A stretch of 32,000 nt of DNA from an uncultured Candidatus Binatia bacterium (GTDB lineage: Bacteria > Desulfobacterota > Binatia > Bin18): the NCBI GenBank assembly GCA_965220195.1, contig CBDCPK010000005.1, positions 664,717-696,716 of the forward strand, in the 5' to 3' direction. Within the stretch, counting starts at the first letter, position 1. Every line of letters begins with the position of its first letter. A program made the position numbers and the translations under genes. Positions 9,312-29,922 of the stretch are shown in pieces. The notes beneath the pieces are model-generated. The model was not told the origin of the DNA. It saw only the letters and a program-made list of their open reading frames with translations, and ran no database searches.

Positions 9312-9366
9312 AAAGAGGGAACGTGTCCAGCCTTGTACCTGCTATTAGAGGACACGTTTCCTCTTT
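9312..9366. repeat. Palindromic ~55-bp element, copy 1 (arms AAAGAGGGAACGTGTCC / GGACACGTTTCCTCTTT)
   Basis: The 17-bp inverted arms have 1 mismatch and a 21-nt spacer. It lies in the pstS-pstC intergenic region. It belongs to the same family as the copies at 23244, 25945, 27178 and 28877. Confidence 0.85.
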
Positions 9367-9397
9367 CAAAGAAGGGCGGGGGAGTCCCCCACCCTTC
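9367..9397 (-). terminator. GC-rich hairpin, a candidate intra-operon attenuator after pstS
   Basis: On the minus strand the sequence GAAGGGTGGGGGA-C-TCCCCCGCCCTTC forms a 13-bp stem with 1 mismatch, followed by TTTG. It lies 42 nt after the pstS stop. The U-run is short, so it would be an attenuator rather than a full terminator. Confidence 0.45.
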
Positions 9398-9438
9398 TGT
9401 TACTTCATCCTGGTTCGAACGTGTGCGTAAGAGGGCGC

Positions 9439-10410
9439 TTATTCCTCCATTGCCGCTCGATCTTCATTCACCAGCTTGGCAGACATTGGATAGTAGCCGT
9501 CCTTGACCACGATCTCTTGTCCTTCTTTGCTCAGGACAAACTTGAGAAATTCCTTGGTCAGGGGATCGAGCACCCTGTTCGGTTCTTTGTTCACATAGAC
9601 ATACAGGAAACGGGACAGGGGGTACTTCCCGCTGGCCACGTTCTCGTAGGTGGGCTCGACATAGTCGCTGCCCTCTTTGACCAAGGGGATGGGGCGCACG
9701 CCCGAGGTCGTGTAGCCGATACCGCTATAGCCCGCGCCGTTGCGGTCTTCACTCACACCTTGAACCACGGAGGCTGAGCCCGGCTGCTCCTTCACCGTAT
9801 CCTTGTAGTCTCCCTTGCACAGCGCAACCTTCTTGAAGAAGCCGTAGGTGCCCGAGGCGGAATTCCGGCCGTACAGGCTGATCGGAGCTGAGGCCCAGTT
9901 TCCTGTCAGACCCAGGTCGCCCCAGGTGGCAGTATCTAGAGGTGCGCCACATTTGCGGTTTTTCGAGAAGAGGGCATCGACCTGCTGAAGGTTGAGGCCC
10001 TGGACCGGATTGTCCTTATTGACAAAGACGGCCAGTGAGTCGAGCGAGGTACGAATCGGGGTCGGTTTGTACCCGAACTTCTTCTCAAACTCGTCCATTT
10101 CTTTGCTCTTCATAGCACGGGACATGGGACCGAGTTGGGCCGTGGCTTCAATCAGGGCCGGGGGGGCCGTGCTTGAGCCTTTGCCTTCGATCTGGACGTT
10201 CACGTTGGGATAGACTTTTTTAAACCCTTCGGCCCAGAGGGTCATCAGGTTGTTCAGCGTGTCCGAACCGATACTGTTCAGATTGCCCGAGATGCCGCTG
10301 ACCTTTTCATAGCTGGGCAGGTCGGCATCGACCTGAATCGTCTGAGCGTTTGCCACCGAGGCGCTCAGCGCCACGGCTCCACACAGGGCCAGTAGTTTTC
10401 GCATTTTCAT
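9439..10410 (-). CDS. pstS: Phosphate-binding periplasmic protein PstS
   Basis: Has a signal peptide ([22 protein letters not shown]) and PstS-family motifs ([29 protein letters not shown]). GAGGAGAG lies upstream of the ATG. Confidence 0.9.
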
Positions 10411-10429
10411 ACTCTCTCCTCTCTAGGGT

Positions 10430-27682: not shown

Positions 27683-28430
27683 GACCGGGATCGCGCGCGT
27701 TTGTAAGGGGAAAGTCCTGGTAGTTGGTGTTGGCGGGCTGGGCTCTCCGGCGGCGTTTGCGCTTGCCCTAGCTGGGGTGGGAACGATCGGCCTGGTGGAT
27801 TCGGACTGTGTCGAGCTGTCAAACTTACAACGACAAATCCTGCACTTTACCCCGGATATTGGAAAGCCAAAGGTCGATTCGGCCAAGGAAAAAATTCAAA
27901 AACTTAACCCCTCGATAACAGTGGTGACCTATAACGAGTGGCTGCATGCGGCTAATCTCGCAGATATCTTTGCCGCCTACGATTTTATTGTTGACGGGAC
28001 GGACGGCGTGGCCACAAAGTTTCTGATCAATGACGGTGCCGTGCTGCTCAACAAACCACTCTCTCACGCTGGCATTGTCCAATTTCACGGTCAGGCATTG
28101 ACGGTCTTACCCCATCGGACGACGTGTTTGCGCTGCCTGTTCCCGGTCCCGCCTCATCCTGATGAGAATCCCACCTGCCAGGAGGCCGGTATCCTTGGCA
28201 GCCTAGCCGGCAGTCTGGGCGGCGTGCAGGCTGCCGAAGCTGTGAAATACCTGAGCGGAGCGGGGGAACTCCTGACCGACCGCTTACTGACCCATGACGC
28301 CCTGGCCTTACGCTGGCGAGAGGTCCGGGTGCGCCCCAGCCCGCACTGTCCGCTGTGCGGCACGCCGCGGACGATTACGGGCTTACAGCCCGAAGCTTAT
28401 GAGTTGGAAAGACTCTGCACTCCGGTCTGA
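27663..28430 (+). CDS. ThiF/MoeB-family E1-like adenylyltransferase (intact ATP loop, lacks the N-terminal RYxRQ helix)
   Basis: Has KVLVVGVGGLGSPAAFALALAGVGTIGLVDSDCVELSNLQRQ and two CxxC pairs (CLRC, CPLC). An in-frame TAG at 27657 prevents any longer N-terminus. The TTG start at 27663 is preceded by GAGGAA. Confidence 0.75.
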   Translation: MSLRTNETGIARVCKGKVLVVGVGGLGSPAAFALALAGVGTIGLVDSDCVELSNLQRQILHFTPDIGKPKVDSAKEKIQKLNPSITVVTYNEWLHAANLADIFAAYDFIVDGTDGVATKFLINDGAVLLNKPLSHAGIVQFHGQALTVLPHRTTCLRCLFPVPPHPDENPTCQEAGILGSLAGSLGGVQAAEAVKYLSGAGELLTDRLLTHDALALRWREVRVRPSPHCPLCGTPRTITGLQPEAYELERLCTPV

Positions 28431-28528
28431 ATGAAAATCGGGCAGGGTGATTGTCAGACCGGCGCAAAAACGTAACAGTAGAAGCTCGAAAGAGTAGATG
28501 AGTGATTCTGAATCAGGAGGGAGTGCAT

Positions 28529-28840
28529 ATGAGTGCTCAGGTCCGTATCCCAACCCCGCTACGCCGCTTTACCGGCGGTGCGGAAGCCGTCTCGGCCGAT
28601 GGAGCCACGGTTGGGGCCTTGGTCGATAGTATAGAGAGTAATCATCCTGGGATTAAGGAACGGTTGTGTGACGAGGCTGGCGAAGTCCGTCGTTTTGTCA
28701 ATATCTTTGTGAATGGTGAAGACATTCGTTTTATCAACAATCTGGATACGCCGGTGAATGAGGGCGACGAAGTGTCTATCGTGCCTGCTATTGCCGGAGG
28801 CTCTTTTTGCCCCCGTCTCGCTACGCTCGGCACTCCCTAG
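28529..28840 (+). CDS. MoaD/ThiS/CysO-family ubiquitin-like sulfur carrier with a 12-aa extension after the Gly-Gly
   Basis: ATG 28529 is preceded by AGGAGGGAG. The beta-grasp-like sequence ends in EVSIVPAIAGG (GG codons at 28796-28801), followed by SFCPRLATLGTP and the stop. Confidence 0.75.
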   Translation: MSAQVRIPTPLRRFTGGAEAVSADGATVGALVDSIESNHPGIKERLCDEAGEVRRFVNIFVNGEDIRFINNLDTPVNEGDEVSIVPAIAGGSFCPRLATLGTP

Positions 28841-28860
28841 AGAAAAAAGGGGGGTAAAGC

Positions 28861-29922
28861 GTGTCACTCCTGCCGAAAAGAGTAAACGTGTCCTCCCAGG
28901 ATAGAGAAGAGATGCTGGATACATGTACTCTTTTTCCGATTGAGGGACCGCCGCCAGTCGGCCCCTTGCGTGTTCCGTCGGTTCTGCATCTGATTGGGAA
29001 TACGCCGCTGCTTGAAATCACCCGGCTGAGTACGGACATTCCTCCGGGCGTCCGGGTCTATGCCAAACTCGAAGGTTTTAATCCCGGTGGATCGGTCAAA
29101 GACCGCCCCGCGCTGGGCATGCTCCAAAAAGGAATTGAGAGCGGCGCGCTGACCCCGGACAAGATTATTCTCGATTCCACCTCCGGGAATACCGGGATTG
29201 CGCTGGCCATGATCGGAGCCGTGCTGGGCTACCCGGTTGAGCTATGCATCCCGGCCAACGTCAGTATGGAGCGAAAAAAAATCATCTCTGCGTATGGGGC
29301 AAAAATGATTTTCAGCAGTCCTATGGACGGCTCGGATGGCGCCTTGGAACTGTGTCGGGAGCGGCTGCAAGAGCAGCCCGAGCGCTATTTCAAACCGGAT
29401 CAATACTTTAATCCACACAACTCACTGGCGCATTACCAAACCACCGGGCCGGAGCTGTGGTGGCAGACCAAAGAGCAGATCACCCACTTTGTGGCCGGCA
29501 TGGGGACCGGCGGCACCCTGATGGGAACCGGGCGCTACCTGAAGGAGAAAAATTCGGACATTCAGATTGTTGGGGTTGAACCGGATGATGCCTTTCACGG
29601 CCTTGAGGGGCTGAAGCATATGGACAGTTCCATTGTGCCCGGCATCTACCATGAGGAGCAGCTTGACCGAAAGATCAGTGTTTCCACTGAAGACGCCTAT
29701 GAAACGGTGTACCGGCTTGGGAGAGAAGAGGGGGTTTTGGTTGGCCAGTCATCCGGCGCGGCGATGTGGGCAGCGCTCCAGGTGGCCCGTGAGATCGAGC
29801 AGGGAATAGTGGTGACACTCTTTCCGGATTTTGGAGACAAATATCTCAGCACCAATCTGTGGATCGGCTGGAAAGAGTATAATCAGCGGCAAGCCCACAC
29901 TCAGGCACAGGGAGCAGCGTGA
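28861..29922 (+). CDS. cysM: PLP-dependent cysteine synthase (CysM/CysK family; the context suggests a CysO-thiocarboxylate-dependent type)
   Basis: Has IGNTPLLEI, the PLP-lysine motif GGSVKDR, TSGNTG and GMGTGGT. The start is uncertain. GTG 28861 has a good SD (AAGGGGGG) but would translate the repeat. ATG 28912 lies inside the repeat, and TTG 28966 is also possible. Confidence 0.8.
   Translation: MSLLPKRVNVSSQDREEMLDTCTLFPIEGPPPVGPLRVPSVLHLIGNTPLLEITRLSTDIPPGVRVYAKLEGFNPGGSVKDRPALGMLQKGIESGALTPDKIILDSTSGNTGIALAMIGAVLGYPVELCIPANVSMERKKIISAYGAKMIFSSPMDGSDGALELCRERLQEQPERYFKPDQYFNPHNSLAHYQTTGPELWWQTKEQITHFVAGMGTGGTLMGTGRYLKEKNSDIQIVGVEPDDAFHGLEGLKHMDSSIVPGIYHEEQLDRKISVSTEDAYETVYRLGREEGVLVGQSSGAAMWAALQVAREIEQGIVVTLFPDFGDKYLSTNLWIGWKEYNQRQAHTQAQGAA
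28877..28933. repeat. Palindromic ~55-bp element, copy 5 (inverted orientation, degenerate)
   Basis: Sequence is AAAGAGTAAACGTGTCC TCCCAGGATAGAGAAGAGATGCT GGATACATGTACTCTTT. It lies between the sulfur-carrier gene and the conserved core of cysM. Confidence 0.75.

Follow-up and report, generated by a model that had tools for sequence, protein, structure and literature searches.

A palindromic repeat of 54 bp, hereafter the 54-mer, occurs five times in a 32,000 nucleotide stretch of a Candidatus Binatia genome (C5:664717-696716 of genome G000, hereafter the window) and about 152 times in the genome as a whole. Based on the results below, we conclude that it is very probably a family of non-autonomous, hairpin-forming mobile elements: gains in single lineages, exact absences at orthologous sites, decay by internal deletion and inversion in place were all observed. 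[quoted passage not shown]

The 54-mer family and its host range

The window is part of a 5.12 Mb assembly consisting of the 4.93 Mb host chromosome and four small contigs. Using an oriented, iterated nhmmer profile search of this genome, about 152 copies were counted, all of them on the chromosome and none on the four small contigs, so that the motif is not limited to the window. Within the window, searching with the 17 nt arm gave nine matches at up to 3 mismatches (0.15 expected by chance), all at the five places annotated before, and a repeat finder recovered the same five copies (Table 1). Their coordinates stood, except that copy 3 ends at 25998 and not at 25997.

Each unit is composed of a 17 bp arm (AAAGAG[T/G]AAACGTGTCC), a 20 nt asymmetric loop (consensus AGCATCTCATGTCTATTGGA) and the complementary arm; 78 copies are 54 nt and 38 copies 55 nt long. 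The boundaries of the unit are sharp, as information content is zero directly outside AAAGAG...CTCTTT. The arms are not palindromic in themselves and solo arms are rare in the genome (approx. 25). The perfect 17 bp arms reported for copy 4 were found again, and the asymmetric loop box (AGCATCTC...ATTGGA) does set a polarity, opposite for copies 1-3 (plus strand) and copies 4-5 (minus strand).

For intact copies, folding energies range from −24 to −34 kcal/mol, with z between −5 and −8. The exception in the window is the degenerate copy 5, whose right arm has more than 3 mismatches and whose minimum free energy (MFE) as RNA is −15.8 kcal/mol, compared to −24 to −34 in the other window copies. 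A covariance analysis of the arms, which had been proposed together with the initial annotation, gave values well above shuffled controls. For 133 distinct genomic copies, 93.7% of cells were paired (89.7% in shuffles) and, outside a T:A/G:C marker pair, 41 cells were compensated where 10.5 were expected (shuffle maximum 20). An alignment of 35 copies was paired to 95.1% compared to 89.8% after shuffling, a value reached by none of 500 shuffles, and 9 of the 17 pairs showed compensation.

Related loci belong to metagenome-assembled genomes (MAGs) of Candidatus Binatia, and the window sequence was found in sponge metagenomes. Of 27 congeners, 20 have the arm pattern, the closest relatives of G000 being G018 (97% nucleotide identity) and G001 (96%), and its count falls with divergence, from approx. 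45–140 arms per strand in close relatives to 8–23 in intermediate ones and 0–1 in a distant subclade (approx. 72% nucleotide identity). A covariance model detected 3–8 copies in two of three genomes of one sister genus, and the 132 genomes representing the 18 other families of the class gave none. From these two results we conclude that the family is restricted to the genus and its nearest neighbor genus and is not class-wide.

Orthologous sites are filled, empty or decayed

Orthologous sites were compared between empty and filled forms, as the initial annotation had suggested. The syntenic alignment of window positions 20108-32000 with five relatives covers copies 2-4, and two further 20 kb regions, aligned with 27 congeners, add 15 sites. 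Neither the five window sites nor the 15 others are uniform in congeners, being empty, flipped, shifted or decayed in places; all 15 further sites are polymorphic and their pooled states comprise 49 filled, 13 flipped, 87 empty and 39 partial or rearranged cases.

Copy 2 has counterparts in relatives L001-L004 and a clean empty site (GCTTC/TCGTCC, the slash marking the junction) in L008. Copy 3 is filled in L001, L002 and L004, with a clean 54 nt empty site in L003 and L008. Copy 4 is an exact insertion of 54 nt in the window, L001 and L002, and the site is empty (GGATG/TCTCCG) in L003, L004 and L008; elsewhere in the same BamD-like gene, L001 and L004 carry a second in-frame copy of 51 nt. 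The spacer between thiF and thiS, which has no 54-mer in the window, is filled in the alignment of the relatives. Some gains were seen in one genome only (G007 or G006) against 10–16 empty genomes including outgroups.

Decay products comprise a 9 nt footprint (GAAG/TCTTT), a 22 nt collapse and half copies, and internal deletions of the 54-mer occur at microhomologies. At the site of copy 1, the element lies on either side of a conserved GC hairpin in congeners and is flipped in G007. It is reduced to a 22 nt footprint in G005 and G035 and absent in G012, G034, G039 and G017; the spacer is deleted in G018, G002 and G006. The conserved hairpin itself (9368-9400, minus strand; 13 bp GC stem with a U-rich tail directly 3′ of pstS) is kept in outgroup species without the 54-mer and is probably the native attenuator or terminator of pstS-pstC.

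Inversion in place

Inversion of the whole element in place was seen at two sites in the alignment of the window block with the five relatives, and flips were recorded at three of the four multi-genome intergenic sites of region 1, at three window-block sites, at C5:880470 and at copy 1. None was seen at the intragenic sites examined, in line with the idea that a loop turned around there would alter or terminate the protein. Copy 2, upstream of mgtE, is inverted in place in L001, and compared with L002 its inner-arm mismatches have moved together with the loop. At C5:803.6 kb, the outermost CTCTTC end is unmoved in both orientations. Since inner mismatches move with the loop, the outermost end stays and a formal test of whole-element versus loop-only inversion was mixed, the alignments appear to favor breakpoints inside the arms and, with them, an exchange between the inverted arms by recombination or template switching rather than excision and reinsertion. 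The loop at this same site (C5:803.6 kb) also varies by species, with two clearly different variants lying in opposite orientations, which suggests that copies may occasionally be converted or replaced.

Effects on coding sequences

Using gene positions from a crude gene call, approx. 15 of the 152 copies lie robustly inside open reading frames (ORFs), and their in-frame translations fall into a few recurrent peptide types; thus, about 10% of the copies are intragenic. A single ORF of 1214 aa has several insertion sites. The intragenic copy 4 is present in an RNA contig. Further, 17–18 genes stop exactly at the TAA of the arm (AAA GAG TAA, giving proteins that end in ...KE), compared to 0–5 at any neighboring offset. 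At C5:4002252, a single copy supplies the stop codon to both of two convergent genes. From empty orthologs, two native gene ends were recovered, ...LGPDVF and ...QADA; in either case the 54-mer had inserted in phase 0, at a point three codons ahead of the stop. In loci L106-L108, L110 and L115, the spacer orthologous to C5:4002252 has no 54-mer and holds another GC-rich palindromic repeat (GTAGGGGCAATCCCC...GGGGCTACCCCTAC); on the strength of this alignment, convergent gene ends appear to be landing pads for several repeat families.

The initial annotation was correct about the gene contexts of the copies, but counted one in-frame copy inside a coding sequence. Copy 5, in cysM, is a second one. 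It is also present in L003 and, diverged, in G014. In the outgroups G039, G015, G016 and G013, cysM reads MSLLP-RR-TEGPPP without the element and the GTG start is kept 3 nt after the stop codon of thiS. In L001, L002, L004 and L008, the left arm has been lost together with the thiS extension and the former start of cysM in a deletion of 94 nt; the loop and the right arm remain, and thiS is terminated by the TAG of the loop. The ATG of the AGAGATGCT box is the only plausible start codon of cysM in these four. ThiS itself (window 28502-28840) has a C-terminal extension of approx. 13 residues past its Gly-Gly in the host genome, L003 and G014, while the protein of other congeners stops at GG or close to it. 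For a carrier of the CysO type, GG would have to be exposed by processing.

Search for a mobilizing factor and for regulatory activity

Neither a target-site duplication nor an associated transposase had been seen in the window, and this was borne out genome-wide. Direct identity of at least 2 nt between the flanks is at chance level (9 vs. 9.06; 2 vs. 2.4), and more than 15 comparisons of empty and filled sites gave no duplication, merely ambiguities of 0–4 nt. Concerning a target motif, the flanks contain zero information genome-wide and nothing is common among the empty sites. Two peculiarities of the flanking bases were noticed on this chromosome (G000:C5): the single adjacent base is identical on both sides in 54 cases compared to 33.5 expected, and the two bases flanking the 54-mer on either side are never mutually complementary (0 of 135 vs. 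9.8 expected).

PF01797 (Y1 HUH transposase) gave no match in the host genome, which is 100% complete. Matches to Y1_Tnp were found in 13 of 28 congeners, i.e., in 6 genomes of the 16 element-rich ones and in 7 of the 12 with few or no elements. Ten of the 16 element-rich congeners are without Y1_Tnp, five of these being single-contig assemblies, and G007 has lineage-specific gains yet no Y1 transposase. A REP-associated tyrosine transposase (RAYT) or other Y1 enzyme was rejected as the mover, being absent from the host genome and not tracking the element in the 28 congeners. A parent insertion sequence (IS) was rejected as well: no distant inverted arm pairs were found in the host genome, to which this search was confined, and the ends of the IS4/5-like (DDE_Tnp_1) and IS630-like (DDE_3) elements of the same genome are unrelated. 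Genes bracketed by close copy pairs were also dismissed, all of them being housekeeping or ordinary metabolic genes.

An Rfam search of the window gave no match for the 54-mer. Loop orientation is not significantly biased relative to transcription (45 same, 65 opposite, p = 0.07) or to the replichore (p = 0.19), and flipping would erase such a bias. An intrinsic terminator has a short GC-rich stem, a small loop and a 3′ U-tract; the 54-mer does not have this form, as it has a 17 bp stem, a 20 nt loop and a T-run that is part of the stem. RNA data, which the initial annotation had named as a test for processing or termination, were available as metatranscriptome contigs. These pass through copies 1, 4 and 5 without a gap; therefore, the three copies are not strong terminators, with partial termination being possible at this contig level. 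Breaks of RNA contigs at copy 3 were discarded as a sign of termination, since DNA runs show the same breaks and they are assembly breaks at a repeat. Apparent joints of contigs at the copies turned out to be contigs from other genomic copies.

A second repeat as host of the 54-mer

A GC-rich repeat of two hairpins, named R2, has about 50 uninterrupted copies in the genome. Two of these are found in the window (Table 1), where they lie head to head inside a ThiF-like ORF (29941-30783). Another 11–14 R2 copies carry the 54-mer at one fixed junction (GGGAGGG/GTGCCGC), in either loop orientation and with a subfamily-specific loop. An IS4/5-like element likewise sits in R2 elsewhere in the genome.

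Concentration around the replication origin

The gene dnaA is located at C5:789.5 kb and two tandem, near-perfect parS sites at 818.6 kb. The copies form a symmetric peak around dnaA, 83 of 152 being found within ±0.5 Mb; the median distance is 0.43 Mb compared to 1.23 Mb expected (Kolmogorov-Smirnov test, p approx. 1e-17). The interval from 0.50 to 1.32 Mb contains 79 copies, with 25 expected (p approx. 2e-23). Perfect arms in G018 are likewise skewed toward the region syntenic to dnaA (p approx. 8e-4). R2 is depleted in the origin region (9 vs. 21). In profile score, subfamily and stem quality, which served as proxies of age, copies near the origin are no different from those far from it. 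Compared by eye with parS and the DnaA box, the arms have nothing but a common ACGTG core.

Gene neighborhood in the window

Pfam analysis of the neighboring genes identified a PstS-like protein, a PstC-WD40 fusion, MgtE, Ppk, a BamD/YfiO-like protein with a long acidic tail, ThiF, ThiS and a PALP enzyme (CysM). The fusion is encoded by an ORF of 777 aa (6926-9259, minus strand), in which WD40/beta-propeller repeats are joined to a PstC-type ABC permease domain.

Table 1. Copies of the 54-mer and of the repeat R2 in the window.
Feature	Position	Strand	Description
Copy 1	9312..9366	+	55 nt; pstS-pstC spacer, adjoins native GC-rich attenuator hairpin (probable) at 9368-9400; RNA MFE −26.8, z −6.3
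Copy 2	23244..23297	+	54 nt; 15 nt upstream of the ATG of mgtE (mgtE on − strand)
Copy 3	25945..25998	+	54 nt; 6 nt 3′ of the ppk stop codon
Copy 4	27178..27231	−	54 nt, perfect 17 bp arms; adds 18 codons in frame to the BamD/YfiO-like ORF 26108-27682, in its acidic C-terminal tail
Copy 5	28877..28933	−	57 nt, degenerate; adds 19 codons in frame to cysM (GTG start at 28861), following its codon 5
R2 pair, uninterrupted	30484..30576	30484-30524 on −, 30537-30576 on +	Empty form of the host repeat

Three further sequence features were noticed in the window. The spacer between the divergent genes mgtE and ppk contains a direct repeat of 87 nt (23438-23524 and 23605-23691, 89% identical), each unit of which folds as a long hairpin, the RNA MFE being −43 and −36 kcal/mol at z values of −4.3 and −3.5, without a match in Rfam. 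A long palindrome at 14013-14087 (GCTCGTCATGCCGG...CCGGAATGACGAGC) is another widespread repeat, since its contig depth is 30–50-fold in excess in DNA and RNA runs from sponges; neither a tRNA nor an Rfam family matched. In the acidic tail of the BamD-like protein (27400-27520), the relatives show an indel or duplication polymorphism of a 24 nt unit of the CCTGTCCTGAGCCCAGTCGAAGGG type, which is independent of the 54-mer.

Discussion

The polymorphism among congeners leads us to interpret the 54-mer as a mobile, non-autonomous family. Since compensatory changes maintain the pairing of the stem, the element would move as a folded hairpin. Insertion may be blunt and scarless, judging from the lack of both a target duplication and a target motif. 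The agent could be a trans-acting enzyme, either of the host or of a kind not yet described, or replication or repair, rather than a RAYT/IS200-type transposase or a parent IS sharing its ends. Inversion would most likely occur by recombination or template switching between the two arms, similar to minute hairpin inversions of chloroplast DNA. Most copies would be tolerated passengers, surviving in spacers, leaders, gene ends (with the arm AAA GAG TAA as stop) and tolerant in-frame regions of proteins. A few seem to have been co-opted, providing stop codons and, in sister species, the start codon of cysM. The specific route of insertion is put forward tentatively, and we consider it less probable than not.

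Several observations weigh against mobility. No mobilizing enzyme was identified, and transposition as such we infer from insertion polymorphism. A symmetric peak centered on the origin is not predicted by a purely selfish element inserting at random. The genomic copies are old, with only 0.2% of pairs being at most 2 nt apart and loops differing at approx. 45% of positions, and copies so diverged within one genome do not point to a burst at present. In the four-gamete test, sites A and B of the BamD-like gene fail, an outcome that does not distinguish between loss, regain and recombination; exact absences could partly be due to homologous recombination with empty alleles instead of excision. 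Contigs from two DNA and two RNA sponge runs contained no empty alleles at the window sites. The mixed outcome of the formal inversion test belongs here, too.

What else could have produced this pattern? That the copies are independently conserved regulatory hairpins (terminators, attenuators, mRNA stabilizers or structured RNA) and not mobile DNA is highly improbable. Their stems are stable and covary, many copies are placed directly after stop codons or in leaders, and the A-rich and T-rich ends look like a bidirectional terminator, but every examined site is polymorphic in close relatives, orientation is unbiased relative to transcription and copies flip in place. In addition, the share of copies residing in frame inside ORFs, the RNA contigs crossing copies 1, 4 and 5 and the missing Rfam match disagree with such a role, and the hairpin kept between pstS and pstC in outgroups is a different, GC-rich one. 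A rival closer to our interpretation is spread and loss by host recombination, either ectopic gene conversion or template switching via near-identical arms, with empty alleles being swapped between strains. The two loop variants at C5:803.6 kb, the failed four-gamete test, the flipping of inner arms with the outermost base staying in place and the internal deletions at microhomologies would all fit. Conversion between existing copies, however, cannot make a copy at a naive site, and gains in a single genome against 10–16 empty ones including outgroups require that a copy was truly inserted. For RecA-dependent exchange, moreover, 17 bp is a short arm length, and we regard spread by recombination as an improbable explanation on the whole.

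A REP/REPIN (REP doublet forming a hairpin) family mobilized by a RAYT, with the enzyme lost from the host genome or too diverged for detection, was already disfavored by the distribution of PF01797: the domain is absent from the host, missing in 10 of 16 element-rich but present in 7 of 12 element-poor congeners, and absent from G007, which has lineage-specific gains. The 54-mer also has no conserved target tetranucleotide, arms that are not REP-like palindromes and no gene bracketed by copies, so that this origin is very unlikely, even if hairpin form, high copy number, scarless insertion and excision as in single-strand transposition of the IS200/IS605 type (PMC3337134) and the Y1_Tnp matches in 13 of 28 congeners speak for it. 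The peak around dnaA and the tandem parS sites, the same tendency in G018, the depletion of R2 in this region and the similar age proxies of near and far copies could further be explained by a function or targeting in the origin domain, i.e., by binding sites of a nucleoid or segregation protein or by insertion coupled to origin-proximal replication intermediates. Yet individual origin-proximal sites are freely gained and lost between species, copies are found all around the chromosome, no binding protein is known, and the pattern may equally reflect inherited history or local hopping from a founder close to the origin; we deem this rival quite improbable. A combined proposal would be that a transposase-independent or non-Y1 route acts on folded hairpin DNA and is coupled to the origin region, or that the copies are binding sites of an origin-domain protein. 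We think it unlikely, but if true, an origin-coupled hairpin route would explain the scarless, motif-free insertion, the inversion in place and the peak within ±0.5 Mb of dnaA and parS.

Returning to the 54-mer as a mobile family, small palindromic repeats are common in bacteria. For the question of how those families are moved that have neither a RAYT nor a parent IS, the 54-mer offers an unusually clean natural data set, with exact empty, filled, flipped and footprint states in dozens of sequenced congeners. It stands out in that it was gained in lineages lacking any Y1 transposase, often resides in frame in proteins, has provided stop codons and in one case a start codon, and is concentrated at the origin. 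Annotation of Binatia MAGs is affected as well, as the element shifts apparent gene starts and ends and adds segments of 17–19 residues to proteins.

Comparison with known systems

REPINs and REPs with their RAYTs in Pseudomonas and enterobacteria (PMC3116915, PMC3337134) are similar in being short, non-coding hairpin repeats with tens to hundreds of copies. They share lineage-restricted, mostly vertical inheritance, a conserved stem with a variable spacer, excision footprints and the lack of target duplications. A hallmark of that system is that RAYTs are flanked by REPINs (PMC3337134). The 54-mer, in contrast, has no RAYT in its host and no association with Y1 enzymes in congeners, simple inverted arms of 17 nt instead of REP palindromes and no GTAG-type end or target motif; further, its loops flip in place and its copies are centered on the origin. 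REPINs are extragenic, whereas approx. 15 of the 152 copies of the 54-mer are intragenic and in frame (two of five in the window) and another 17–18 form gene 3′ ends.

Rickettsia palindromic elements (RPEs; PMC10969869) likewise enter unrelated protein-coding genes in frame, where they are translated as an extra peptide, at sites that vary by species. The insertions of 54 and 51 nt in the BamD-like gene and of 57 nt in cysM, which leave the genes unbroken, are comparable. Size and host set the two apart: RPEs measure approx. 100–150 bp compared to 54 bp, the 54-mer is mostly intergenic, and its host is a free-standing, sponge-associated Binatia whose 5 Mb genome is not of the reduced, intracellular kind. 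Bacterial MITEs such as Correia, ERIC, RUP and BOX (PMC10969869) are small, non-coding and insertion-polymorphic, have terminal inverted repeats and can alter gene ends or expression. The 54-mer resembles them in its terminal inverted arms of 17 bp, small size, lack of coding capacity and insertion polymorphism among related genomes. Unlike MITEs, it has no target-site duplication and no parent IS with matching ends, it is far smaller, and the whole unit is a single hairpin. Palindrome-associated elements derived from IS200/IS605 have a specific tetra- or pentanucleotide target and a replication orientation bias, neither of which was found for the 54-mer.

A counterpart of the flipping is seen in the minute hairpin-loop inversions of non-coding chloroplast DNA, reportedly described by Kelchner and Wendel in 1996, in which a short loop flanked by inverted repeats is turned around recurrently and homoplasiously at orthologous sites. 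The chloroplast hairpins, however, are resident sequences and not, like the 54-mer, a dispersed mobile family. In summary, the 54-mer works like REPINs and MITEs in being a hairpin-forming, non-autonomous and polymorphic repeat and like RPEs in residing in frame within genes, yet it departs from each of them in the traits by which they are defined.

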